NCBI GenBank assembly: GCA_043812495.1
Contig: JBDRMG010000021.1
Location: forward strand, 1 to 58,945
Reading direction: 5' to 3'
DNA from: Candidatus Omnitrophota bacterium
Lineage (GTDB): Bacteria; Omnitrophota; Gorgyraeia; Zapsychrales; JBDRMG01
DNA length: 58,945 nt
In this document: in pieces, positions 13,523 to 34,881 of the stretch
Position numbering within the stretch: position 1 is the stretch's first letter
Layout of the letters: the number at the start of each line of letters is the position of its first letter
Notes under the pieces: generated by a model
The model's input: the letters and a program-made list of their open reading frames with translations, nothing else
The model's database searches: none
Told to the model about the DNA's origin: nothing
Made by a program: the position numbers and the translations under genes

Positions 13523-15547
13523 TTAGAATTTTCCCTTAACCCCAAGGACAAAATTCATCTCCGGAGCCGGAAAATGATCTTTATTGGTGGATTTTGCGCT
13601 TTTAACCACATAGGTATAATATTGCTCGTTAAAAATGTTATTGAGTGAAATAAAGCATTCCAGATGCTTGATATCAAAGGCGATTTTAGCATCCAGAAGA
13701 GCATACGGCTTGATAGGTGGGGTTTCGTTAAGCGTGTCGTTGATAGCAAAACGGCTCCCGACATAAGTTCCGATCAATGACAGTTTGTAACGATCAAACA
13801 ATTCTAAATTTAATCCCGAGCTCACCTGATGGCGAGGGGCCATAGGAATAAGTTTTTTCTCAAAAGCACCTTCACTGAATTTTGGCTCCTGATAAGTATA
13901 ATTAGCGAAAAATTTGAGCTTGCTCAACCACGGAAGATCCATAAATTTTAAGAGGTCGGCTTCCAGGCCCGTCTCCAAGCCGACCCTTCGTGTTTTATCA
14001 TAATTGTCATTCGAGCCGAAGGACCCCGATGTCGGATTAAAGAAGATCTCGTTCTTCAAATCCATCCAATATGGTGTTAGGCTGACAGTGATCTTATTAT
14101 CAAAGTTATGTTTGAGGCCGATTTCATACTGGATGCCGTTTTGATGATCAATGTCAGTGTTCAATCCCGACCAGGTATCATACCATTCATCCGTTGAGAG
14201 AAATCGGAATGTCTGCTGGACATTAAAATGAACATTTGAACCCTTGGCGTATTCATATTTCGCCCCGAGTATAGTAACGGTTTCGCTGGGCTCAATTTCG
14301 TCATAAAAGGGCGTGTCGCGCCGGTCAAAGGTATAAGCGGCCTTCTGATAGCGAAGACCGCCATTGATAAAACCGTGTTCGAGAATCTCGTATTCCGTAA
14401 AGAGATACCCGCCGATTTCCTCTTTGGATATCGTCAAGTCATCGGTGCTGGCGCTGATCCCCGCCCCGCTTCCCAGAATATCATTGGTGACATCGTACCA
14501 ATCGATTCCTGTAACAAAATTGAACTCCTTTGAAAATAGAGTTTTATCAAAGATATACTTAGCGGATAATCCGTACGTATCATTCGAGCGTTTTGTCGCG
14601 GTTGCGCCAAAGGCGCCGTAATCAAACCAGGCATAGGTATCTTTATTATTAAAGAAAAAATCCACGACAAAATGGCCGAAGTCCATGTCTTCCGGCCATG
14701 GTTTCAGGTCGATGGCCAATTTGACATGGCGGTCTTTGCTTGAGGCGCGATCTTCGGCGTTTGCCGATCCGCGTCGACCTAGATCCTCCAGCTCTGCAAA
14801 GCTTAATCCGCCGGGCAGGCCATAATCATCCTCATGCCATCCGGCTATTAAATCAAATGAAGCCATGTCAAAGATTTTGTAGCCAAGACGCATATCATAG
14901 TCCTTAGCTAATAAATCACTATTTTCTCTATAGCCGTCGGTATCGGAATATTTTGAGTAAAAATAATAGGATAGCTCTTTCCATTCACCGGATAATTCCG
15001 CCTCTTCACTAAGCGCATCGTAACTTCCGTAGTTGACACCCACCTGACCGGACAGTGGCCCCTTGCCTTTTTTAGTGATGATATTGATGACCCCGCCGAC
15101 GGCGTTATCACCGTAAAGAACCGAACCGGCCCCGCGGATGATTTCTATTCTGTCAACTGCTTCGAGGGGGATTTGAATTAAATCCGGTCCGGAGATATCA
15201 ATGGGATTGACTCGACGGTCATTCACAAGAACAAGAACATTTCTTGTGGCCGTATCCCCGAAACCGCGGATATCCACCACAGACGTTTTGGTGGTTCCGG
15301 TGTTGTAGACACTGACACCAAGCTCTTCTTTAAGAACATCTGCAATATTTTCCGCACTCGATTCCTCGATGTCTTCTCGTGTGATCACGGATACATTTCC
15401 GGTGATCTTATAGTCATGTTGAGCGATGCGACTCGCGGTGACAACGATTCTGTCGAGATCAAAAGCTTGGTTGTCCTGGCCGAAAACAACATCACTAAAG
15501 GCCAATAGACAACAGATTGTAATCAATAAAATAACAATATTTTTCAT
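13523..15547 (-). CDS. btuB: TonB-dependent receptor, probable cobalamin transporter
   Basis: Signal peptide, DRIVVTASR TonB box, RIEIIRGAGSVLYG..AVGGVINIITK plug motif and C-terminal Phe; lies downstream of a B12 riboswitch. Confidence 0.85.
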   Translation of the reverse strand: MKNIVILLITICCLLAFSDVVFGQDNQAFDLDRIVVTASRIAQHDYKITGNVSVITREDIEESSAENIADVLKEELGVSVYNTGTTKTSVVDIRGFGDTATRNVLVLVNDRRVNPIDISGPDLIQIPLEAVDRIEIIRGAGSVLYGDNAVGGVINIITKKGKGPLSGQVGVNYGSYDALSEEAELSGEWKELSYYFYSKYSDTDGYRENSDLLAKDYDMRLGYKIFDMASFDLIAGWHEDDYGLPGGLSFAELEDLGRRGSANAEDRASSKDRHVKLAIDLKPWPEDMDFGHFVVDFFFNNKDTYAWFDYGAFGATATKRSNDTYGLSAKYIFDKTLFSKEFNFVTGIDWYDVTNDILGSGAGISASTDDLTISKEEIGGYLFTEYEILEHGFINGGLRYQKAAYTFDRRDTPFYDEIEPSETVTILGAKYEYAKGSNVHFNVQQTFRFLSTDEWYDTWSGLNTDIDHQNGIQYEIGLKHNFDNKITVSLTPYWMDLKNEIFFNPTSGSFGSNDNYDKTRRVGLETGLEADLLKFMDLPWLSKLKFFANYTYQEPKFSEGAFEKKLIPMAPRHQVSSGLNLELFDRYKLSLIGTYVGSRFAINDTLNETPPIKPYALLDAKIAFDIKHLECFISLNNIFNEQYYTYVVKSAKSTNKDHFPAPEMNFVLGVKGKF

Positions 15548-15633: not shown

Positions 15634-15701
15634 GCACCCTGATTTACTTAGTCCCTTTATGCAGTTTCTATGCCATTTCCTCGCGGCAAAAGAAAACAAA
15701 A

Positions 15702-15918
15702 CTAGATAGGTAGGTCTTCTGGCTCTCCCGCCCTTTTGACCGCCTTCCCATTCTCACCCGGAGAACAGTGGCTCTATTATTGTGTCAAAAGGGTTCCCTC
15801 TTTCGTTCTCGAAAAAGGGCGGGATTACAGCGGCGGGACCGCGCCTGACTTCCTGCCAATCGCGCAGGGCACAGGCTTCCCTTTTAATTCTCTTTAAAAT
15901 CCGAGAAACCTATTTAGA
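15702..15918 (-). ncRNA. Cobalamin riboswitch
   Basis: Minus strand AGGT...AAAAGGGAA...GCGGTCCCGCCGCTGTAA...GCCACTG...GGGAAGGC...AGCCAGAAGACCTACCT (B12 box); P1 TAAATAGGT/ACCTATCTA. Confidence 0.93.
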
Positions 15919-15922
15919 TTAT

Positions 15923-16429
15923 TTAGTTTGTTAAAAGAGCATGAGCCAAGCGTGTGTCTTTGACTCGTAAGGCGATATATTCATATAGACCAAAAAGTGC
16001 AGTGCTATAGACTAATGTGCTAACTAAGGTATTTCTAAAAAACGGTATCGCTAAGCTGAAACATTGAATCAAACCGGCTAAAGTGTTCGGATAGAGGCCG
16101 GTCAGCCAGACACCAAAATTGGTGACGATAAAGAAAAGAACGGCGCTTGCGATGCTGCCGCCAAAAATAAGAGCAAAACTTTTTCTTGTTTTGATCCAAA
16201 GGCCTAAGGCCGCGATGATGGCCATGCTGCCCCATGTGTAGAGAATTGTCTCATGAAGACCCAAGAACAGATCAGCCAAGATCATTAAAGCAACAGGTAA
16301 AATGACCGCGTAGCGTTTGTTGAGATAGACACCGCTAAAAAGGGCTACCGCTAAAATAGGCGTGAAATTCGGTTCATGAACGATCAATCGAGTCAATACA
16401 CCAAAGACCAATAGAATAATCGCTAACAT
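15923..16429 (-). CDS. DUF6580/BtuM-like membrane protein, putative cobalamin transporter
   Basis: R...H.PNFTP..A.ALF.G, LFFIVTNFGVW, YP.T..GL..C and AIPFFRNT motifs; B12 context. Confidence 0.75.
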   Translation of the reverse strand: MLAIILLVFGVLTRLIVHEPNFTPILAVALFSGVYLNKRYAVILPVALMILADLFLGLHETILYTWGSMAIIAALGLWIKTRKSFALIFGGSIASAVLFFIVTNFGVWLTGLYPNTLAGLIQCFSLAIPFFRNTLVSTLVYSTALFGLYEYIALRVKDTRLAHALLTN

Positions 16430-25286: not shown

Positions 25287-25296
25287 CTATTAATAA

Positions 25297-25370
25297 TAGC
25301 GGGGGAGAGACTCGAACTCTCGACGCCGCGGGTATGAGCCGCGTGCTCTGACCAACTGAGCTACCCCGCC
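25297..25370 (-). tRNA. tRNA-Met (CAT), elongator type, CCA not encoded
   Basis: GGCGGGGTAGCTCAGTTGGTCAGAGCACGCGGCTCATACCCGCGGCGTCGAGAGTTCGAGTCTCTCCCCCGCTA folds as a cloverleaf. Confidence 0.93.
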
Positions 25371-25389
25371 ATAAAATCAATTTGAGACG

Positions 25390-25531
25390 TGAGTCCTTCG
25401 ACTCGCTCATTTCATTCGCTCGCTTGAGGATGGTTCGCCTCGCTTCTTCCAAGATTTATGGCGAGTCCCTCGACTACTCTCGGGATGGTGAGCTTGTCGA
25501 ACCACGAAGCGAGTCGAACCGCTACCCCGCC
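25390..25531. repeat. Nested REP-like palindromes ending in a duplicate of the tRNA 5' end
   Basis: GTCCTTCGACTCGCTC...GAGGAT, TCCCTCGACTACTCTCGGGA and TGGTGAGCTTGTCGAACCA; GCTACCCCGCC at both 25360-25370 and 25521-25531. Confidence 0.7.
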
Positions 25532-25646
25532 TTAAGAACCTATGGTTGGGAATAATAAATGAATTAAGAAATCGTCAAGATTCTACGTGAAATGAAGGGA
25601 AATTTCAAGACATATTTCCCTCATGAGGATGGGCGCAAGGGATCTT

Positions 25647-25946
25647 TCAAATATAGAAGATCACGTAAAGAAGGAAGACGATGATTAATGCAGACAAGAT
25701 ATAGAAATCATTAAAATAAAAAAAGTCTTTAAAGCGCTCAGAGGACGTGTATTTGAATTGGATGGTTTCTTCGGTTACATCCCCCGTATTTTTTAAATCG
25801 AGAACTTCGCTTCTTTTCAATCGCAAAAACTGGCCGGCGATGCGATAGGCTTGGAGCTTGCGATCTTCCACTAAGTCCATGATTATTTTTTCGGATGTGC
25901 CCAGCGCTTGCGCAGCTTCCCGCACAGAAATAAATTGGTCAGCCAT
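25647..25946 (-). CDS. Excisionase/MerR-like (HTH_17) domain protein with C-terminal TM helix
   Basis: ISVREAAQALGTSE..I..LV....L.AYRIAGQFLRL.R.EV; hydrophobic tail FYILSALIIVFLLYVIFYI. Confidence 0.8.
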   Translation of the reverse strand: MADQFISVREAAQALGTSEKIIMDLVEDRKLQAYRIAGQFLRLKRSEVLDLKNTGDVTEETIQFKYTSSERFKDFFYFNDFYILSALIIVFLLYVIFYI

Positions 25947-25947
25947 A

Positions 25948-26463
25948 TTATTTTATCTTGGTCGATGAGGCCCACTCATCAATGCGTGAACGTTCGAATT
26001 TCCAGCCATTGCCTTCTTTGGTGGCCGGGATTTGCCCTGAATTAGCCAGCTCGACGATAGAGGAGGTGTCAATCTCAAGGTATTTGGCTAATTCATCCGC
26101 ATCCAAATATTCATCCAGCATTTGGCATTTTCCCTGAAAGACAGCGCCTTCGACCACATTGAGTTTTGGCGTGATGATATTACCGTTTAATATGCCGGTG
26201 GGCATAAGGACCAGCATTCTCTTAGCGACAATATCACCCTTGACACGTCCGGCAATAATAATATTTTCTCCTGAAATGTGAGCGATGACATTGGCTGTAT
26301 TGCCGACCGTTAACGTTCCCCGGGTTTCTAGTGTTCCTTCAAATTTTCCGTTAATTTTTAAGTTGACCGGATCCTTAAAAGATAATGTCCCTTGCATTTT
26401 TGCATTGATTTCAATCACCTTTTCATCTGTATTGCCCTGTTCTTTTCGTTCTCGTAAGGCCAT
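25948..26463 (-). CDS. Bactofilin (polymer-forming cytoskeletal protein) fused to a C-terminal HTH_17 domain
   Basis: Beta-helix pattern MQGTL..LKINGKFEGTL...LTVG.TANVIAHI....IIIAGRVKGDI...GNI.TPKL.V.EGAVFQGKCQM, then YLDADELAKYL.I....I..LA..GQIPA.K.GNGWKF.R..IDEW; GAAGGAGG RBS. Confidence 0.88.
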   Translation of the reverse strand: MALRERKEQGNTDEKVIEINAKMQGTLSFKDPVNLKINGKFEGTLETRGTLTVGNTANVIAHISGENIIIAGRVKGDIVAKRMLVLMPTGILNGNIITPKLNVVEGAVFQGKCQMLDEYLDADELAKYLEIDTSSIVELANSGQIPATKEGNGWKFERSRIDEWASSTKIK

Positions 26464-26478
26464 CGTCAACCTCCTTCA

Positions 26479-26922
26479 TTACTCGTTAAATTTTTCGTCT
26501 AAACGCTTTTCAAAAGAACGTAATCCTATCAAGATGATGAAAACAGCAATCGCGACAACAAAAGCCGCGGTATAATCACCGGAGCCAACGGCCATGCCGA
26601 TTCCTGCGACAATCCAAAGGGTCGCTGCTGTTGTTAATCCTCGGACGCCGCGGCCGCCTTGAATAATCGTCCCCGCACATAGAAATCCAACGCCTGTGAC
26701 AATTCCCGAGATAATACGGGTCGGGTCGACCGTAGTTACATTTTTATATATATCAAAAACATGAAAGGAAGTCAACACAATCAAAGCTGAGCCTACACCC
26801 ACAAGAACGTGGGTTCTCAAGCCCGCTTCCTTATGACGGACACCTCTTTCCGCTCCGATCAATCCGCAAAGTATAACCGTTAAAAGTATTCTCCAAACAA
26901 TGACAAGAAATCCCGTACTCAA
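26479..26922 (-). CDS. MgtC/SapB family membrane protein
   Basis: IGAER, AGLRTH.LV, DPTRI...IVTGVGFL.AG and GLTTAATLW motifs. Confidence 0.92.
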   Translation of the reverse strand: MSTGFLVIVWRILLTVILCGLIGAERGVRHKEAGLRTHVLVGVGSALIVLTSFHVFDIYKNVTTVDPTRIISGIVTGVGFLCAGTIIQGGRGVRGLTTAATLWIVAGIGMAVGSGDYTAAFVVAIAVFIILIGLRSFEKRLDEKFNE

Positions 26923-27911
26923 TGCGACCCTCCTTTTTTTAAAAGATGATAACCAAGCCCTGCGACCATAGCTGCGTTATCCATGCAGTATGTGAGAGCA
27001 GGAAAGTAAACATCAATCTTGTTTTTCTGACAAACCTGGATGAGGCGTTTTCGCAAAGACGAATTGGCGGCTACGCCTCCCCCCACCAGAAGTGTATTTA
27101 AGTTTTTTCGATGGCAAACGGCGAGGCATTTATTCACAAGTGACGTAACGACGCTTTTCTGAAAAGCATAAGCAATTTTCTCAATAGGAATGGCTTTTCG
27201 ATTTTTATACGATCGCAAATGATAGAGAACAGAGGTCTTCAGGCCGCTAAAACTGAAATCATTAGTGTTTCTAAGATCCGCGCTGGGAAATCGAATGTCT
27301 TGATTTTTTCCATTTCTGGCCAATCGGTCAATGACAGGTCCGCCGGGAAATCCAAGATCAAGCAATCGTGCCACTTTATCAAAAGCTTCACCCGCTGCAT
27401 CATCTCGGGTTTGACCCAGTGGCGTAAAGGTCGTGAAATTCTTCATAAGAAAAAGACTCGTATGTCCGCCGGAAACAACCAATCCTAAAGCCGGCAATCC
27501 GGGCCGCATTTTCTTAGACGCATCGCGAACGGTTTCCTTCCGCTTTGATAAAAAATTTGAATACAGATGAGCGTGAATATGATTGACTTCCGCTAGAGGT
27601 TTCTTGAGGGCAAAAGAAAGCGCGCGACCGAAAGAGACACCGACAAGAAGGGATCCCACAAGACCCGGATAAGCGGTGACGGCAATCCCACCGATTGATT
27701 TCAATGGCAGATTGGCCTTTTTCAGTGCCTGCTGCGTGACAAGGTTGATCAACTCAAGATGACGCCGGGATGCGATTTCCGGGATGATGCCTCCATATCG
27801 GGCATGTTCCTTTAAGCTCGAGGCAATGATGCTGGAACGAATCCATCGCCCATTTTCGACGATAGCGGTGGCTGTTTCATCGCAGGATGTTTCAATTCCG
27901 AGAATGTTCAT
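26919..27911 (-). CDS. tsaD: tRNA threonylcarbamoyltransferase
   Basis: LGIETSCDET, NHIHAH, VSGGHT, DDAAGEAFDK and DNAAM motifs. Confidence 0.96.
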   Translation of the reverse strand: MNILGIETSCDETATAIVENGRWIRSSIIASSLKEHARYGGIIPEIASRRHLELINLVTQQALKKANLPLKSIGGIAVTAYPGLVGSLLVGVSFGRALSFALKKPLAEVNHIHAHLYSNFLSKRKETVRDASKKMRPGLPALGLVVSGGHTSLFLMKNFTTFTPLGQTRDDAAGEAFDKVARLLDLGFPGGPVIDRLARNGKNQDIRFPSADLRNTNDFSFSGLKTSVLYHLRSYKNRKAIPIEKIAYAFQKSVVTSLVNKCLAVCHRKNLNTLLVGGGVAANSSLRKRLIQVCQKNKIDVYFPALTYCMDNAAMVAGLGYHLLKKGGSH

Positions 27912-28764
27912 AAGAAGCTTTCGTTTTTAGCAGTTGCGTGACGGTGACGAATTCAAAACCTTCGCGGGTTAGAAGTTCCATTTGTTCCTTGAGGACATTC
28001 AAGGTGAGGCGTCGGTCATGGCCGATGCCGATCGCGTACCCTCTTTTTTGGGCAATACGCGTGAGTTGCGCCAACTGGTTGGTGATATAATCTTGATCAT
28101 TTTCGTTATCCAAAAAAACATCTCGCGAAACAAAAGGTAGATCAAACACGCGTGAGGTTGATTGACCAACCGATTGGCTTGTAACTAAGCTGTCGACAAA
28201 ATAAAGATTTTTTTTCTTAAGATCCGCAAAAATTGTTTTCATGAGAGCGGGATCTTCCGTTGCCTTTGAGCCCATATGATTGCTGATGCCGACAGCAAAG
28301 GATACGCTTTTAAGGGCATCTCCCAGGATGTTTTGTATCTCTTCTTGAGACATATCGGTGTTAATCACATAGTTTTTAGGATACTCTTCATGGCTTTCGT
28401 AAGGCTCCAGAGGAAGATGCAAGATAACATCTTTATGGGAATCATGGGCGCATTGAGCGATTGTATCTGAATGAGGAAGATTTGGCAAAATAGAGATTGT
28501 TAAAGGATAGCCTATCTCCTTAAGAATTTGACAATGCTGGGCATTATATCCCCAATCGTCGATGATGATGGCTATCTTCGGGTGTATAGTTTTCTTTCTT
28601 GCTTCCAAAGGACGTTCGATTGTTACCGGTCGTTTTTGGACCAGGGCTTTTGGGAGGCGGTTACGTACAAGAAAAAAAGTCTCTAGCGCGACCAATAGGA
28701 TTAGCGCAAAAATGAGAGTATTCTTAAAATCGGGGTCGCGCTTTTTTATTTTCATTAAGATCAT
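27892..28764 (-). CDS. Divergent polysaccharide deacetylase family protein (YibQ-like)
   Basis: IAIIIDD.G, LHLPLEP, NHMGS, FVDS, RDVFLDN and IGH motifs. Confidence 0.92.
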   Translation of the reverse strand: MILMKIKKRDPDFKNTLIFALILLVALETFFLVRNRLPKALVQKRPVTIERPLEARKKTIHPKIAIIIDDWGYNAQHCQILKEIGYPLTISILPNLPHSDTIAQCAHDSHKDVILHLPLEPYESHEEYPKNYVINTDMSQEEIQNILGDALKSVSFAVGISNHMGSKATEDPALMKTIFADLKKKNLYFVDSLVTSQSVGQSTSRVFDLPFVSRDVFLDNENDQDYITNQLAQLTRIAQKRGYAIGIGHDRRLTLNVLKEQMELLTREGFEFVTVTQLLKTKASYEHSRN

Positions 28765-28773
28765 GCTACAAAA

Positions 28774-30177
28774 TTAACCGTTAAACTTACTAAAAACTTT
28801 GATGCCTTGAATAATATTGATAGCGCTTTGAATCTGATTATCGGCCGCTATGCGTTTCTTGATTTCTTCTTCCTTCTTGGCCTTCTCGATTTCTTCGGGA
28901 TTTTCGGCGCCTTTCAATTCGATGTCATCAAATATTTTTTCGGCACCATTTTCCTTGTCTTCTAATTTCTTCTCTTCGTCTGTCTTCTTGTATTCATATT
29001 CGACAATAACATCCGGCGTAATGCCAACACCATGAATCGATTTTCCTGACGGAGTGAAATATTTGCTTGTGGTGAGCCGCAAGCCCGATCCGTCCGGTAA
29101 CGGAATGACTGTTTGCACGGAACCTTTTCCGAACGATTGCATTCCTACGATGACGGCCCGTTTATTATCCTGCAAGGCGCCGGCAAGAATCTCGCTTCCG
29201 GAGGCCGATCCTTCATTGATCAAAACAACCATGGGCCAATGAACAAAGTCATTCTTAATATTATTTCTGGATACTTTTTCTGAATTTTGTGTTTCGCGAC
29301 GACCTTTGGTCGAAACGATGACGGCTCCTTGAGGAAGAAATTCTTCGGTGATATCTTCTGCAATAAGGAGAAGACCGCCCGGATTGTTGCGCAAATCCAA
29401 AATTAAACTATCGGCTCCCTCGTCTTTGATTTTCTCGAGAGCCTTGTGAAAATCCTTAGCGCTATTTTCACGAAATTCTGATAGGCGAATGTAGCCGATG
29501 TGATTATCTAAGACGCGCACATCCTTGACGTCCTGGATGCGAATGACTTCACGCGTAATGGTAAAATCATGGATTTTATATTCATCCTCCCGTAAAACCG
29601 TGATGTTGATTTTTGTTCCCGGCTTACCGCGGAGTTTCTTGACAGCGTCATTGAGGGTGATGTCGCGGGTGACTTCATCTTCGATTTTCACAATACGGTC
29701 GCCTGCTCTGATTCCGGCATTCCAAGCCGGAGTGTCCTCGAGCGGCGTGATAACCGTCAGAAGCCCATCGCGGATGGCAATTTCTATTCCGAGACCACCG
29801 AACTTTCCTTGAGTTTCTGTTTTTAAATCTTTGTAATCTTCGGGTGTGAGAAACTGACTGTGGGGATCCAGGGAAGAAAGCATGCCTTTGAGGGAGCCGT
29901 AAATCAATTCCTTGGCTGTTGGTTTCTCGGCGTATTCCGACTGAATCGTGGTCAAGGCATAACTAAAAAGTTCCACTTGAGCATAGAGGTCGTCTTCAAG
30001 GGCTTCTTTAGCCTCTTGTGATATTTCGACGTCTTCCTCAAGGTCGGGAGCGCTTATTTCCGTTTCAATCACTTCCTCGTTTTGCGGAATCTCTTGCGCT
30101 TCTTGAGACAGGACAAAATCGATCGGAATGGTGCAGATCAGTAGAAAGAGAAAAACAGAAACAATTTTTCTAACCAT
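28774..30177 (-). CDS. ctpA: S41 carboxyl-terminal protease
   Basis: LDPHS, PDZ GGLGIEI, LDLRNNPGG, SASGSEI and GKGSVQ motifs. Confidence 0.94.
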   Translation of the reverse strand: MVRKIVSVFLFLLICTIPIDFVLSQEAQEIPQNEEVIETEISAPDLEEDVEISQEAKEALEDDLYAQVELFSYALTTIQSEYAEKPTAKELIYGSLKGMLSSLDPHSQFLTPEDYKDLKTETQGKFGGLGIEIAIRDGLLTVITPLEDTPAWNAGIRAGDRIVKIEDEVTRDITLNDAVKKLRGKPGTKINITVLREDEYKIHDFTITREVIRIQDVKDVRVLDNHIGYIRLSEFRENSAKDFHKALEKIKDEGADSLILDLRNNPGGLLLIAEDITEEFLPQGAVIVSTKGRRETQNSEKVSRNNIKNDFVHWPMVVLINEGSASGSEILAGALQDNKRAVIVGMQSFGKGSVQTVIPLPDGSGLRLTTSKYFTPSGKSIHGVGITPDVIVEYEYKKTDEEKKLEDKENGAEKIFDDIELKGAENPEEIEKAKKEEEIKKRIAADNQIQSAINIIQGIKVFSKFNG

Positions 30178-31609
30178 TTTGGATCCTCCCTTTAATCATT
30201 TCGCCAATTTTCTTTGGGTTGGCTTTACCTTTGCTTTTTTTCATGGCTTGACCGACCAAAAATCCGATCGCGCTATCTTTCCCATCTTTAATTTGCTGAA
30301 TGATTTTATCATTTTCACGTAAAATCTCATCAACAATCTTATTTAATGAAGCGTCATCCGAAACTTGGGCCAATCCTTCCGCGGCAATAATTTCATCCAC
30401 ATTTTTTCCGGTATCAATAACGAGCTTTAAAACATCCTTTCCCGCAAGATTACTTAACGCGCCGCCTTCAACTTTCTCGATAATGGATATTAATTTTTTT
30501 GGGCTTAAAGAAACAGCGGTGATCGGAATTTTTCGCGCATTGAGCTCTTGCAAGACCGGACCGTTGATCCAATTGCAGATTTTCTTGGTCTGCGGGAACA
30601 ATTTAGCGCAGCTTTCAAAGAAATCTGAGAGGTTCCTGTCCTGAATTAAGATTTGCGCATCATAATCAGAAAGGCTGTAATCTTTTTGCAAGCGAAGATA
30701 TTTTTGCGTTGGCGACTCGCCTAAGGTTTTGCCGATTTCTTCAATGGCTTTTGGCTCAACCATAAAAGGGACAAGATCCGGTTCCGGGAAATAACGATAA
30801 TCGTGCGCCTCTTCCTTGCTACGCATCGGCAGGGTCACTTGTTTTTGTTCATCCCATAATCTTGTTTCTTGAGTCATCGGCTCATTCGCATTTTTCATGT
30901 CTGTTTGACGATTTATTTCGTAATCCAAGGCATTTTTAACGGCCTTAAAGGAGTTCATATTTTTAATTTCTATTTTGACGCCTAAAGTTTTTTCTCCCAT
31001 TTCGCGAATCGATATATTAGCGTCGCAGCGAAGACTCCCTTTTTCCATGTCGCAATCGGAGACGTCCAAATATTGAAGGGTCAATTTAAGCATTGTCAGA
31101 TAGTCGTAGGCTTCTTGCGCGCTTCGCAGATCCGGTTCCGTGACAATTTCCATCAGAGGAGAACCTGTGCGATTGTAATCGACCAGGCTACAGCGATTTT
31201 TCGGATCGTGGATCAATTTTCCGGCGTCTTCCTCCAGATGGGCCCGATGGATGCGAATTGTTTTTGATTGACCGTTCACAAAGATTTGGATATATCCGTC
31301 ATGGGCTATGGGTTGATCGTATTGAGAAATTTGATACGCTTTGGGCAAGTCAGGATAGTAATAATTCTTTCGATCAAATTTGATTAAGGAATTCACCTGG
31401 CAATTAAGACCAAGGGCAACTTTAATGGCCAGCTCAAGCGCCTTTTGATTGAGAACCGGAAGTGCGCCCGGCAATCCTAAGCACACAGGGCATGTTTGGC
31501 TATTGGGATCCTGGCCGAATGTATTGGCGCATCCGCAGAAGATTTTGCTTTCTGTGGCCAGCTGCAAATGCACTTCAAGTCCGATGACAGTTTCAAATTC
31601 TTTTTTCAT
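30170..31609 (-). CDS. gatB: Asp/Glu-tRNA amidotransferase subunit B
   Basis: IGLEVH.QL, FDRKNY.YPDLPK.YQISQ and DYRYFPEPDL motifs. Confidence 0.98.
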   Translation of the reverse strand: MKKEFETVIGLEVHLQLATESKIFCGCANTFGQDPNSQTCPVCLGLPGALPVLNQKALELAIKVALGLNCQVNSLIKFDRKNYYYPDLPKAYQISQYDQPIAHDGYIQIFVNGQSKTIRIHRAHLEEDAGKLIHDPKNRCSLVDYNRTGSPLMEIVTEPDLRSAQEAYDYLTMLKLTLQYLDVSDCDMEKGSLRCDANISIREMGEKTLGVKIEIKNMNSFKAVKNALDYEINRQTDMKNANEPMTQETRLWDEQKQVTLPMRSKEEAHDYRYFPEPDLVPFMVEPKAIEEIGKTLGESPTQKYLRLQKDYSLSDYDAQILIQDRNLSDFFESCAKLFPQTKKICNWINGPVLQELNARKIPITAVSLSPKKLISIIEKVEGGALSNLAGKDVLKLVIDTGKNVDEIIAAEGLAQVSDDASLNKIVDEILRENDKIIQQIKDGKDSAIGFLVGQAMKKSKGKANPKKIGEMIKGRIQNG

Positions 31610-33045
31610 AGTGACGGTTTCTGTTTATGCCAGGGCGTTTTCTGCTCATAGGCATGGGCCAAACGGAACATCATCTCTTCATCAAACGGTTTAGTCATCA
31701 TTTGAAGACCGATAGGCAAACCTTCTTTGGAAAATCCGCACGGAATCGAAATCGCAGGAATGCCGGCCAGATTAGCCGATATGGTATACACGTCGGATAA
31801 ATACATCGCCAGAGGATCATCTTTTCTCTCGCCAATCTTGAAAGCTGTTGTCGGTGATGTCGGCGTAAGAATCGCATCCAGTTCTTTAAAGGCTTTATCA
31901 AAATCGTTCTTGATCAGTGTCCTGACTTTTTGAGCTTTCAAATAGTAGGCGTCATAATATCCAGCGGACAACGAATAGGTCCCGAGCATAATGCGTCTCT
32001 TGGCTTCATCGCCGAAGCCAATCCCGCGCGTTTCTTCGTACATATCAATGAGACTTGAGCGTCTTGTTTTGTCCGGTTGCCGACGCAGACCATACTGTAC
32101 CCCGTCAAATCGGGCCAGATTGGAACTGGCTTCCGCGGTGGCCACGATATAATATGTGGCCACGGCATAATCGCTGTGAGGTAAAGAAATATCTTTAAAA
32201 ATGACGCCTGCATTCTTAAGGACGCTGATCGCTTCTTGAACAGAAGCCTTGACCTGCGCATCAAGGCCTTGGACGAAATATTCTTTTGGAATGCCGACCT
32301 TCAGTCCCTTGACATCGCCAGTTAAGGAATTTACATAGTCAGGGACAGGTACGTTGACGGATGTCGAATCCCGTTCGTCATGCCCTGCAACAATATTCAA
32401 TAAAAGAGACGCATCTTCGACATCTTTGGTCAGCGGGCCAATCTGGTCAAGGCTTGAGGCAAAGGCGATGAGTCCGTAGCGAGAAACGCGACCGTATGTT
32501 GGTTTGACGCCTACAACGCCGCAGAATGAGGCCGGTTGTCGGATCGAACCGCCCGTATCAGATCCAAGCGCCCAGATCGTTTCATCGGCAGCCACGCAAG
32601 CGGCCGATCCGCCGCTGGAGCCGCCGGGAACGCAATCGAGATTCCAGGGATTATGGGTTGGGCCGTAATAAGAGTTCTCTGTCGACGAACCAAAAGCGAA
32701 TTCATCCATGTTCGCGTATCCGAGAAAAGTGCTGTGGGCCTCAATGAGTTTTTCGATGACGGTTGCGTGGTAGGGCGAACGAAATCCTTCGAGGATATGC
32801 GAGCAACAGGTGACTTCCTGATTCTTTATGCACATGTTGTCTTTGATAGCGATTGGAATGCCGCCTAATTGACTTTGAGATGCTGCTTTTTGAGGTTGAG
32901 AATCAAACAGGCGAACATAGGATTTAACTTTTTTATCTGTTTTATTAATCCTTTGCAGGACAGATGCTTGAATTGCTTGTGCATCAGTCTTTTTTTGTTT
33001 GATCAAATCAAGTAGTGCGTGAGCCGTTAAGGCGGGATAATTCAT
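31606..33045 (-). CDS. gatA: Asp/Glu-tRNA amidotransferase subunit A
   Basis: IKDN, GGSSGGSA and SDTGGSIRQPA amidase signature. Confidence 0.98.
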   Translation of the reverse strand: MNYPALTAHALLDLIKQKKTDAQAIQASVLQRINKTDKKVKSYVRLFDSQPQKAASQSQLGGIPIAIKDNMCIKNQEVTCCSHILEGFRSPYHATVIEKLIEAHSTFLGYANMDEFAFGSSTENSYYGPTHNPWNLDCVPGGSSGGSAACVAADETIWALGSDTGGSIRQPASFCGVVGVKPTYGRVSRYGLIAFASSLDQIGPLTKDVEDASLLLNIVAGHDERDSTSVNVPVPDYVNSLTGDVKGLKVGIPKEYFVQGLDAQVKASVQEAISVLKNAGVIFKDISLPHSDYAVATYYIVATAEASSNLARFDGVQYGLRRQPDKTRRSSLIDMYEETRGIGFGDEAKRRIMLGTYSLSAGYYDAYYLKAQKVRTLIKNDFDKAFKELDAILTPTSPTTAFKIGERKDDPLAMYLSDVYTISANLAGIPAISIPCGFSKEGLPIGLQMMTKPFDEEMMFRLAHAYEQKTPWHKQKPSL

Positions 33046-33326
33046 TCAATCACCTGAGGGACTTTAAAGGATCCGTTGTGCGTGTGCGACGTGATTTTCA
33101 TCACGGCCCCCTGCTCAAGGGATGGCTTGATGCGATCAGCGCGAAACACATTTTTTAAAGGAAGAACATGGCTGGTCGGCTGGACGTTGGTCACATCCAG
33201 TTTATTGAGTTTCTCAATATAACCCAGAATATCTTCCAGCGTCTTTGTTAAGTGCTCAACTTCCTGTTCCTGCAAATGGATGCGAGATAAATGGGCAATC
33301 GCGCGAACATCTTTTTTAGAAATCAT
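33042..33326 (-). CDS. gatC: Asp/Glu-tRNA amidotransferase subunit C
   Basis: IAHLSRI, LDVTNV.PT and FKVP.VIE motifs; gatCAB order. Confidence 0.95.
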   Translation of the reverse strand: MISKKDVRAIAHLSRIHLQEQEVEHLTKTLEDILGYIEKLNKLDVTNVQPTSHVLPLKNVFRADRIKPSLEQGAVMKITSHTHNGSFKVPQVIE

Positions 33327-33383
33327 AGTAGCGTCATTCCTAAATTTTAATATTCATATTAATATTAACTCCAAAGCTGAAAT

Positions 33384-33412
33384 ATAATAGCATTTGCGTC
33401 TTAGTTTCACAA
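33384..33412 (-). promoter_or_regulatory. Putative sigma70 promoter of gatC operon
   Basis: TTGTGA-N17-TATTAT with a TGn extension. Confidence 0.55.
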
Positions 33413-33420
33413 GGACAACC

Positions 33421-33801
33421 TTACAACAATTTTGATTTGAGATCTTCCGGAATGGGGGTTGGCTTGAAATCTTTATTGAGACAAACGAGAGTTACTTCTG
33501 ATTCCACGATGAGCTGGTTTGTTTTCTTCTCAAAGATTTTCTGATCGAAAATCAGTTTAACAGCCGATGCCTTTATAAGAGTTGCTGTGCAGATCAGAAC
33601 CTGCCCATAGCGCGCAGGATATCGATAATGGATCGTACATTGACTGACGGCGTACAAAAGTCCTCGTTCGTGAAAGGCCGCAACGCTTAAGCCTTTGAGC
33701 TCGAGAAATTCTGTTCTGGCCTCTTCAAGGTATTTTAAATAATTGCCGTAATAGACGACGCCGCCGGCATCGGTATCATGAAAATAAATTCGTTTTTCCA
33801 T
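33421..33801 (-). CDS. YbgC/FadM family acyl-CoA thioesterase
   Basis: RIYFHDTDAGGVVYYGNYLKYLEEARTE motif. Confidence 0.92.
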   Translation of the reverse strand: MEKRIYFHDTDAGGVVYYGNYLKYLEEARTEFLELKGLSVAAFHERGLLYAVSQCTIHYRYPARYGQVLICTATLIKASAVKLIFDQKIFEKKTNQLIVESEVTLVCLNKDFKPTPIPEDLKSKLL

Positions 33802-33832
33802 TAAAAACTCCTCCGGGATGGTCTGTTAGCTA

Positions 33833-34261
33833 TTACTCTTTTTGTGTCTGCTGGGAAAGCCAGAAATTCGTGGTCGTGCGGAAATTAACTTTTCCGAATC
33901 CAAAAAGGACTTTGTTATTAGCGACTTGAGAAAGATCCCTTGCAATATCCAACAGCGTCATATCCGTGTAGCCCCAATTTCTCATAATTTGCCAGGCCTC
34001 CATGATCGTATCCGCGATGGCATTCTCAGGATTGAAGCAGCGATTTCTTAAAGAGCTCAGAATCCATTGAAATTCGGCAATAATAGCAGGAGCCGGCTCA
34101 ATTTTATTTTTCAGAAAAACATCCTGAATATTTTCATTAGCTGTATGAATCTTAGCAAGCTTATAGGCAATGGTATCCTGAACCTCTTGCGCTCTTGAAA
34201 GAGGCGCATGACAAAAGATGCATAACCATATGCAGATGAATAGGTTAAGAAATATTTTCAT
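33833..34261 (-). CDS. Hypothetical exported protein
   Basis: Signal-peptide-like N-terminus ending SRA-Q; no recognised domain. Confidence 0.6.
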   Translation of the reverse strand: MKIFLNLFICIWLCIFCHAPLSRAQEVQDTIAYKLAKIHTANENIQDVFLKNKIEPAPAIIAEFQWILSSLRNRCFNPENAIADTIMEAWQIMRNWGYTDMTLLDIARDLSQVANNKVLFGFGKVNFRTTTNFWLSQQTQKE

Positions 34262-34458
34262 AAGAATAATTGAACCAGAATTACTACCCATCTTTCTTTT
34301 ATCATCTGTTTGTTGATGTGTCAAGCACAATAGAGAAACTCTTAGCTTATGGGATAAAATAGGTTGTAAGAAACGGAAAATTACTCTTGTGCGAAAGATG
34401 CTTTCGTGTTATATATTTATTAAGACGGCCACGGATCCTTAGCAAAGGTGAAGTGGCC

Positions 34459-34881
34459 ATGCTTGTTAATGATAAAGAAAAAGATTTGAAGACTTTTAAT
34501 CAAAAAGAGTCCAGCCCGCAATCCAGCGATAGGCGCTATCTTCCCCGATGGGAAGTCAGTTCAAAAGTATCCTGCCAAAGAGAAGGCCAAGACGCAGCCG
34601 ATGATTGTTTGAGTAAAGATATTACAGCTATGGGAATGTGCGTTTCGACCAGCCAGGCCTTAAAATCCGGTGAGAAATTATCTTTGCGTATGTATCTGTG
34701 CGAAGACGCAGAGCCGATACGGGCCAATGGGCATGTCGTCTGGATAACGACGGAAGGCCAGGACCAGCGTGCCGGGATCAGCTTTGATTGGATTGATCAT
34801 AAGGCCCGGGATTTGATTTTTAATTATGCCTTTCAATTCAAGAGGGAAGAACTTCGCAAGCGCTGGTTTAAGGGTTGCTAG
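34459..34881 (+). CDS. PilZ domain protein (c-di-GMP receptor)
   Basis: DRRYLPR, DITAMG, G.VVW and AGISF motifs. Confidence 0.85.
   Translation: MLVNDKEKDLKTFNQKESSPQSSDRRYLPRWEVSSKVSCQREGQDAADDCLSKDITAMGMCVSTSQALKSGEKLSLRMYLCEDAEPIRANGHVVWITTEGQDQRAGISFDWIDHKARDLIFNYAFQFKREELRKRWFKGC

Follow-up and report, generated by a model that had tools for sequence, protein, structure and literature searches.

Two small neighboring genes lie on the reverse strand of a 58,945-nucleotide stretch of DNA from a Candidatus Omnitrophota bacterium (contig JBDRMG010000021.1 of assembly GCA_043812495.1; the whole stretch is called the "window" below). The contig is chromosomal Omnitrophota DNA. We define the "fusion" as the product of the first gene, in which a bactofilin beta-helix runs directly into an excisionase-type winged helix-turn-helix (HTH) domain, and the "partner" as the product of the second, which carries an HTH domain of the same class and ends in a predicted transmembrane helix. 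The fusion is the only bactofilin found in the Omnitrophota phylum, and its HTH domain is negatively charged in every aligned homologue. Our tentative reading is of a membrane-bound bactofilin scaffold that would use the HTH as a protein-docking module, with the partner as its likeliest client. An earlier note on this DNA had singled out the same two genes as a candidate cytoskeletal system that tethers the chromosome, or the filament itself, to the inner membrane.

Architecture of the two proteins

The bactofilin domain of the fusion is complete, as the earlier note had claimed: it covers positions 2-98 of the 98 in the Pfam profile Bactofilin (PF04519), at 82.5 bits against a cut-off of 27.9. 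The C-terminal domain matches HTH_17 (PF12728) at 42.1 bits against a cut-off of 27 and the TIGR01764 "excise" model at 33.9 bits against 28.8. A linker of about 4 residues separates the bactofilin domain from the HTH, which is a folded unit of 50 residues. Sequence matches in the PDB are to BacA (2n3d) and to a Thermus bactofilin (6ria), and an ESM Atlas model of the fusion (pTM 0.59, pLDDT 0.76) has a TM-score of 0.65 to a bactofilin cluster over residues 1-125. In BacA the substitution F130R presumably serves as a polymerization-deficient control. The residue of the fusion aligned with F130, F109, occupies a column that is hydrophobic in 32 of 32 fusions when the alignment is read by eye. 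A figure legend in PMC12448750 lists F130R as one of the BacA variants.

The N-termini of the fusions follow the pattern M-A-[L/F]-[R/K]-x-[R/K]-[K/R]; 29 of the 32 have a hydrophobic side chain somewhere in positions 2-4, and each of the 32 carries two or more basic residues in positions 2-9. Bactofilin membrane-targeting sequences have the global consensus MFSKKKK, in which the hydrophobic residues enter the bilayer and the lysines touch the lipid headgroups (PMC12448750). The peptide of the fusion, similar though not identical to this consensus, resembles a bactofilin-type membrane-targeting sequence and is a candidate for one, and the fusion probably reaches the membrane by itself. Since the fusion appears to possess its own basic N-terminal peptide, the partner would not be required as a membrane anchor, the role in which the earlier note had cast it.

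The partner joins the same class of HTH to a C-terminal membrane helix, again as first described. Its match to HTH_17 is borderline (27.8 bits, cut-off 27), and its match to TIGR01764 "excise" reaches 36.1 bits against 28.8. HTH_17 was found in 31 of 31 partners, and both Pfam families in 32 of 32 aligned fusions, indicating that the architecture is not due to chance. The hydrophobic segment of the partner (19 residues, Kyte-Doolittle mean 2.72) extends to the C-terminus, and a 19-residue stretch with a Kyte-Doolittle mean of at least 2.0 ends 0-4 residues before the C-terminus in 31 of 31 partners, which predicts a tail-anchored protein with a cytoplasmic HTH. The best-conserved stretch of the partner is the aromatic juxtamembrane motif that leads into this helix, rather than the HTH: D80 and Y82 are invariant, and D74, F75, Y77, N79 and F81 are at least 90% conserved (n = 31). 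The linker from the HTH to the motif is variable, at 16-53 residues. The basic wing of the partner HTH is conserved, with R42, which aligns to BldC R48, invariant and K or R at positions 35, 44, 45 and 52.

A profile built from the 31 partners matched the PDB entries for Gp37 Xis (4j2n, E 4e-4), BldC (6amk and 6ama, E 0.06-0.07), Tn916 Xis (E 0.07), RdfS, and, weakly, RacA (E 1.2). When the partner and fusion HTH were compared with hhalign, the probability was 97% (E 7.9e-11) at 18% identity; by this comparison the two domains are homologous but distant.

Conservation of the pair and its surroundings

The fusion is a nearly phylum-wide trait of the Omnitrophota. It has 1150 homologues, of which the best 120 all carry both domains, at 66-100% identity, and the named homologues are all Candidatus Omnitrophota. 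Searches of species-representative genomes gave 48 confirmed loci. Thirty-one (L007-L037) have a full fusion at 40-82% identity, their titles naming Omnitrophota or Omnitrophica in 23 cases and "uncultured Planctomycetales/Planctomycetia" in eight; the others are one partial copy at a contig start and 16 loci in other phyla that match in the bactofilin part alone. Of 401 Omnitrophota genomes, 396 gave a match to a profile of 32 fusions at E <= 0.001. By hand count the match reaches E <= 1e-54 in about 355 genomes, is weaker in 41 and is missing in 5, and in the 10 genomes with weak matches that were examined it covered the HTH part only in every case. PF04519 has exactly one match in 55 of 61 genomes that are at least 90% complete and none in the other 6; the window's genome has one. 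The partner profile matched 376 of 401 genomes at E <= 1e-15, with a single match in each.

ESM Atlas searches with the two proteins returned only their own Omnitrophota families. The names that databases attach to the proteins are "polymer-forming cytoskeletal protein", "excisionase family DNA binding protein" and "helix-turn-helix domain-containing protein". A 253-residue metagenome protein, P0155, has a bactofilin domain 43% identical to that of the window and a C-terminal PilZ domain in place of the HTH.

Gene order around the pair is conserved as well. A partner homologue lies directly downstream of the fusion gene, on the same strand, in all 31 full-fusion loci, with a gap of -4 to +155 nt that is at most 22 nt in 28 of them; the same adjacency was seen in 45 of 45 further genomes when coordinates were compared by eye. 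Directly upstream is mgtC in 29 of 31 loci, and tsaD is present in 30, the last locus being cut off by the contig end. The position of the fusion gene after tsaD/mgtC is retained across the phylum down to 40% identity. The picture of a conserved fusion and a conserved pairing thus holds for about 355 (fusion) and 376 (partner) of the 401 genomes and for 31 of 31 adjacent loci; it does not hold everywhere, for some genomes keep the partner without the fusion and a distant fusion lineage has no partner.

In the window, a single base (25947) separates the stop codon of the fusion gene from the ATG of the partner gene, matching the spacing of 1 nt given previously, and Pfam confirms that the two genes end a gatCAB-ctpA-yibQ-tsaD-mgtC run (Table 1). 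In this run ctpA encodes an S41 peptidase and the YibQ-like gene a Polysacc_deac_2 protein. The fusion open reading frame (ORF) spans 25948-26469(-). We prefer the ATG at 26463 as its start, which has AGGAGG 7 nt on its 5' side, and the homologues, which begin M-A-L-R, match that choice. Downstream of the pair are tRNA-Met, a FecR-like gene, a nuclease gene, tilS and ftsH.

Table 1. Coordinates of the fusion and partner genes, their domains and the flanking features in the window.
Feature	Position	Strand	Details
Bactofilin-HTH fusion gene	25948..26463	-	171 aa; stop codon 25948-25950; ORF and Pfam
N-terminal basic peptide M-A-L-R-E-R-K-E, residues 1-8	26440..26463	-	candidate membrane-targeting sequence
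Bactofilin beta-helix domain, residues 16-114	26122..26418	-	Pfam E 2.6e-23
Fusion C-terminal HTH_17 (excisionase-type winged HTH), residues 119-167	25963..26109	-	Pfam E 1.1e-10; acidic
Tail-anchored HTH protein gene (partner)	25647..25946	-	99 aa; stop codon 25647-25649; ORF and HTH_17/excise
Partner HTH_17 domain, residues 6-52, BldC/Xis-like	25791..25931	-	Pfam; profile matches in the PDB
Partner aromatic juxtamembrane motif D-F-F-Y-F-N-D-F-Y, residues 74-82	25701..25727	-	alignment of 31 partners
Partner C-terminal transmembrane helix, residues 81-99	25650..25706	-	predicted, Kyte-Doolittle
Upstream run gatC-gatA-gatB-ctpA-yibQ-like-tsaD-mgtC	26479..33326	-	Pfam
tRNA-Met, downstream of the pair	25296..25371	-	ARAGORN and Rfam

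Several other features of the window were recorded. Between the partner gene and tRNA-Met, at 25397-25520, are short direct and inverted repeats with the core CGAGTCGAA / GGTTCG, which looks like a tRNA T-arm; Rfam and ARAGORN give no match there, and the region 25380-25540(-) folds no better than shuffled sequences (z -0.96). Among read sets matching positions 25300-27300 of the window, no RNA sets are listed, and three groundwater DNA runs from one study match at most a quarter of the sampled words. A cobalamin riboswitch (15692-15928, reverse strand, 91.9 bits) sits just after a DUF6580 gene (15926-16429) and upstream of a TonB-dependent receptor gene (13526-15547). The gene at 34387-34878 on the forward strand, opposite to and about 1 kb upstream of gatC, codes for a small stand-alone PilZ-domain protein.

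Charge of the fused domain and competing explanations

The fused HTH is acidic, and the stand-alone domains of its family compared with it here are basic. The HTH cores of 32 fusions, 31 partners and 23 stand-alone HTH_17 controls from Omnitrophota genomes (three from the window's genome and 20 from seven others) were aligned and their net charges compared. Fusion cores range from -5 to -1, with a mean of -3.4, and are negative in 32 of 32 cases, that of the window being -5. Controls range from +1 to +7, with a mean of +4.9, and show no overlap with the fusions; partners range from -2 to +6, with a mean of +1.5. The controls include close paralogues and are not independent, and a Mann-Whitney p-value therefore overstates the difference between fusions and controls. 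Among representatives of 50%-identity clusters that have the bactofilin-then-HTH order, the HTH is negative in 20 of 23, the distant P0185 lineage included. Acidic residues are conserved in the fusion HTH at positions 130, 132, 150, 157 and 162, several of which are basic or neutral in the controls.

The residues that contact DNA in BldC are K26, T27, T29, R30, W31 and K33, together with a basic wing, H46-R48 (PMC5859096). By sequence alignment alone, 28 of 32 fusions and 27 of 31 partners have an acidic residue where BldC has Arg30. Some of the control HTH_17 domains likewise have Glu there, so we gave overall charge more weight than this site. From the BldC wing (H46, R47, R48) only the equivalent of R48 is retained, as R42 in the partner and as K or R at position 155 in the fusion, which also keeps R158. 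To judge from these sequences, the fused HTH is unlikely to bind DNA in the ordinary way. The acidic character of the domain, set against the positive controls, also makes a DNA tether through the filament's HTH domains unlikely, and this part of the earlier proposal is weakened.

We tentatively propose instead that the fusion forms a membrane-bound scaffold on which the HTH serves to dock other proteins. Clients dock at the flanks of the beta-helix in BacP-PadC, BacA-PbpC and BacR-BacE/BacF, and it is on this precedent that the Omnitrophota HTH is read as a docking module. The fusion would polymerize and its polymer would bind the membrane. Its C-terminal extension, the client-docking region of known bactofilins, would have been replaced by a folded excisionase-type winged HTH, and this domain, stripped of the positive charge of its DNA-binding relatives and bearing conserved acidic sites, would be displayed along the polymer for docking rather than for binding DNA. 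The first candidate client is the neighboring tail-anchored HTH protein with its basic wing, which may contact the fused domain. Its HTH would be held about 20 residues from the membrane by the conserved aromatic motif and the transmembrane helix. Dependence would run one way, the partner also working without the bactofilin. Support for the partner as client is indirect: the genes are adjacent and nearly coupled in translation, both products are predicted at the membrane, and the linker lengths of the two proteins correlate (Spearman 0.55, p 0.001, uncorrected for phylogeny). As to the cellular role, our guess is the organization of the envelope or of cell shape.

Several observations weigh against this proposal. 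Net charge is only a proxy and no substitute for a binding assay, and the HTH is neutral or positive in 3 of the 23 cluster representatives. The block gatB-ctpA-yibQ-tsaD-mgtC, which is of mixed functions, is just as syntenic as the pair, and adjacency is therefore weak evidence. Fused forms of the partner longer than 230 residues were absent among 8000 candidates, itself weak evidence. Mirror-tree analysis of the 27 loci with all genes left a residual correlation of 0.11 between the fusion HTH and the partner HTH after removal of the TsaD and CtpA signal, and the net charges of the two HTH domains show no significant anticorrelation (rho -0.23, p 0.2).

The distribution of the two genes points in the same direction. 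Of the 11 genomes sampled from family f18, 9 lack any bactofilin match, yet all 11 have the partner, which there directly follows tsaD, mgtC being missing too; the partner HTH is alike in f18 genomes with the fusion (2 sequences) and without it (7 sequences). In a genome of genus g41 (G015) the order is tsaD-mgtC-partner, and the fusion alone is missing. All three sampled g41 genomes keep the partner and have weak fusion matches only, and PF04519 found no match in the two that were scanned. A distant bactofilin-HTH lineage (31% identity, four metagenome loci, L084-L087) has no HTH-transmembrane partner. Because the partner persists where the fusion has been lost, the two do not make up an obligate two-part system.

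Some further features of these genomes were noted. The change of A-Y-K/R to T/S-H-N/Q/H in the partners of fusion-less f18 genomes was considered as an effect of the loss and rejected, since both f18 genomes that keep the fusion share the variant, making it a family trait. In a fusion-less genome of family f20, a weak bactofilin match (G043:C8:44497-44703, E 2.3e-8) contains an in-frame TAG and is possibly a decaying copy. Proteins of the distant lineage begin M-K-F-F-P-Q-K-K, and their gene (e.g. L085:1112-4564) follows genes for a 465-residue protein that combines a ParA/MinD-type ATPase with a CBM48/AMPK1_CBM glycogen-binding module, and for two proteins of unknown family, and precedes an MscS-like gene.

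The two genes might instead have unrelated functions and be neighbors only through a stable chromosomal block, which we think somewhat unlikely. The fused HTH would then bind some other client, and the partner would act elsewhere, for instance with MgtC or as a sensor of the membrane state. Such an arrangement fits a block that is syntenic whatever its genes do, a partner that is found in more genomes than the fusion and is unchanged where the fusion is lost, and a distant fusion lineage that does without it. After removal of the TsaD and CtpA signal, the divergence of the partner HTH correlates most highly with that of MgtC (r 0.59, 27 loci), a value that may reflect shared subtype splits. 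Less easily accommodated is that the fusion and the partner are the only members of the block with the same domain class, that 28 of 31 loci show coupled or almost coupled translation of the two, and that both are predicted at the membrane. Moreover, long partner linkers occur only with long fusion linkers (3 of 7 versus 0 of 24 loci with a complete partner, although the three may be one clade).

A tether between chromosome and membrane, in which the HTH domains of the filament and of the membrane protein both bind DNA, perhaps head-to-tail like BldC, and so fix the chromosome to the inner membrane, is in our estimation unlikely. It draws on the solved members of the family (BldC, Xis, RdfS and RacA), which bind DNA, and on BldC in particular, which multimerizes head-to-tail on DNA (PMC5859096). 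The basic residues retained by the partner and the fusion are consistent with it, as is the location of the distant fusion lineage two genes downstream of a ParA-like ATPase gene. Opposed to these are the negative charge of the fused HTH in a family whose 23 controls are all positive, the acidic residue at the Arg30 position, shared as it is with some controls, a partner HTH that is only about neutral on average, and a canonical ParB in the genome.

A switch resembling that of BacR is a doubtful explanation. The partner would be a membrane-tethered DNA-binding protein whose DNA face is covered by the acidic fused HTH, so that the state of the polymer controls DNA binding. BacR sets the precedent, its DNA binding being lost when it is bound to BacE/BacF (PMC13649987), and the acidic patch of the fusion and the basic wing of the partner are opposite in charge; a regulator could also work alone, as the partner does where the fusion is lost. 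Yet neither protein matches the BacR family DUF4004 (PF13171) in Pfam at E <= 1, a partner fixed by a transmembrane helix could not relocalize like BacR, and no strong direct repeats of the kind that might serve as BldC-like sites occur in 25372-25660 or 33300-33900. The absence of charge anticorrelation and of a co-evolution signal speaks against it too.

The idea of a mobile-element remnant, with excisionase genes surviving next to a tRNA gene, is refuted by conservation and context: both proteins do exceed the cut-off of the "excisionase family" model TIGR01764 and tRNA-Met lies about 275 nt downstream, but the 54 window ORFs that were scanned include no member of an integrase, transposase or phage family, the place after tsaD/mgtC is kept throughout the phylum to as low as 40% identity, the partner is a single-copy gene in 376 of 401 genomes, and PADLOC gives nothing for the fusion and a weak mad1 match (E 0.0012) for the partner. 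The earlier note had likewise taken the genes to be chromosomal from the lack of an integrase, and this stands.

The cells in which this bactofilin occurs appear to lack FtsZ. Not one of 81 Omnitrophota genomes with a completeness of 90% or more has an FtsZ/Tubulin (PF00091) match, with controls positive in 13 of 14 reference genomes; no match to the FtsZ model TIGR00065 was above its cut-off in 21 relatives, and FtsZ_C had none in the window's genome. MreB is present in 40 of 41 genomes, the exception being the window's own 90%-complete genome, and full-length FtsA-like frames are present, in the window's genome as elsewhere, as is ParB. Papers on FtsZ in this phylum are vague or at odds: PMC5147048 reports it only in "OLB16", and PMC12283558 groups Ca. 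Omnitrophota with phyla that have conserved dcw genes. A chlamydial bactofilin affects cell size and has no interaction with division proteins. If the absence of FtsZ is real, a single bactofilin acts in an FtsZ-less cell, which heightens interest in its role without disclosing what that role is. On another contig of the window's genome, a 196-residue frame (G000:C22:31224-31811) joins HTH_17 to what appears by eye to be a response-regulator receiver domain.

A bolder version of the switch, which we consider improbable, would have the only bactofilin of an FtsZ-negative phylum display an acidic, DNA-mimicking HTH on a membrane polymer and use it to capture a tail-anchored BldC-like protein by its DNA-binding face. 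Controlled by the polymer, the choice between membrane-bound DNA and bactofilin would link the handling of the chromosome, or gene control, with division or with growth of the envelope. If true, a bacterial cytoskeleton would here have a new means of communicating with DNA.

Most clients of bactofilin scaffolds are unknown, and it is the variable tails that are believed to select them. Here an entire phylum has fixed one folded tail on its sole bactofilin, a winged HTH that seems to have turned from binding DNA into an acidic module, and across deep divergence its gene has kept its place beside that of a tail-anchored HTH protein. At 171 and 99 residues, both proteins are small and easily expressed, offering a first handle on the cell biology of the uncultured Omnitrophota. 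They also bear on whether the link between HTH proteins and bactofilins seen with BacR in Bacillus is a general theme.

Comparison with known systems

We found no description of a bactofilin-HTH fusion with an HTH-transmembrane partner in the full-text literature, a search outside which most subscription journals fall, and in this the earlier note, which knew of no characterized example, is borne out. One close likeness is to BacR (YhbD) and BacE/BacF of Bacillus subtilis, where an HTH protein is also genetically linked to bactofilin genes. BacR, a DUF4004 protein with an N-terminal HTH, is encoded beside the bactofilin genes and shuttles between membrane foci and the nucleoid; it binds BacE/BacF, which lowers its DNA binding, so that physical contact, membrane localization and competition between DNA and bactofilin binding are features of that system (PMC13649987). 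BacR, however, is separate and soluble, whereas here one HTH is acidic and fused and the other is predicted to be fixed in the membrane.

In Myxococcus xanthus BacP's C-terminal extension binds PadC, an adaptor with DNA-related domains, and BacNOP-PadC-ParABS thereby links scaffold and chromosome (PMC5703909). The fusion is similar in carrying a C-terminal extension on the bactofilin, but that of BacP is a long, disordered stretch and PadC resembles ParB, whereas the extension here is a folded winged HTH of 50 residues. A second parallel is BacA of Caulobacter crescentus, with its short basic N-terminal peptide containing a hydrophobic residue and its bitopic membrane client PbpC, whose cytoplasmic tail binds the BacA polymer and can assist in its membrane attachment (PMC12448750). 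The peptides differ, M-F-S-K-K-K-K there and M-A-[L/F]-[R/K]-x-[R/K]-[K/R] here, and the candidate client of the fusion is a 99-residue protein with no periplasmic enzyme domain.

The partner also calls to mind RodZ, in which a cytoplasmic HTH at the N-terminus precedes a lone transmembrane helix and binds the MreB polymer, not DNA. RodZ has an XRE-type HTH of the family HTH_25 and a periplasmic domain, whereas the partner has HTH_17 and extends 0-4 residues past its helix. The partner was rejected as a stand-in for RodZ, since strong HTH_25 (RodZ-type) matches, in frames of 241-376 residues, coexist with it in 20 of 41 genomes, the window's own included. Nor do the proteins belong with MAD1 of the MADS defense system (NF047737), which they match at 42.7 and 19.5 bits against a cut-off of 80.

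In fold, both HTH domains resemble BldC, Xis and RacA, the class of small winged HTH proteins without the MerR dimerization helix. RacA, together with DivIVA, ties DNA to a polar scaffold. Those proteins are basic and bind DNA; the fused HTH is acidic and has no recombinase context, and the ORFs of the window and the fixed position of the locus across the phylum show no integrase or recombinase association of the kind expected of an excisionase or recombination directionality factor. What is new in this pair is a bactofilin scaffold with a new fused module, together with a new candidate membrane client.

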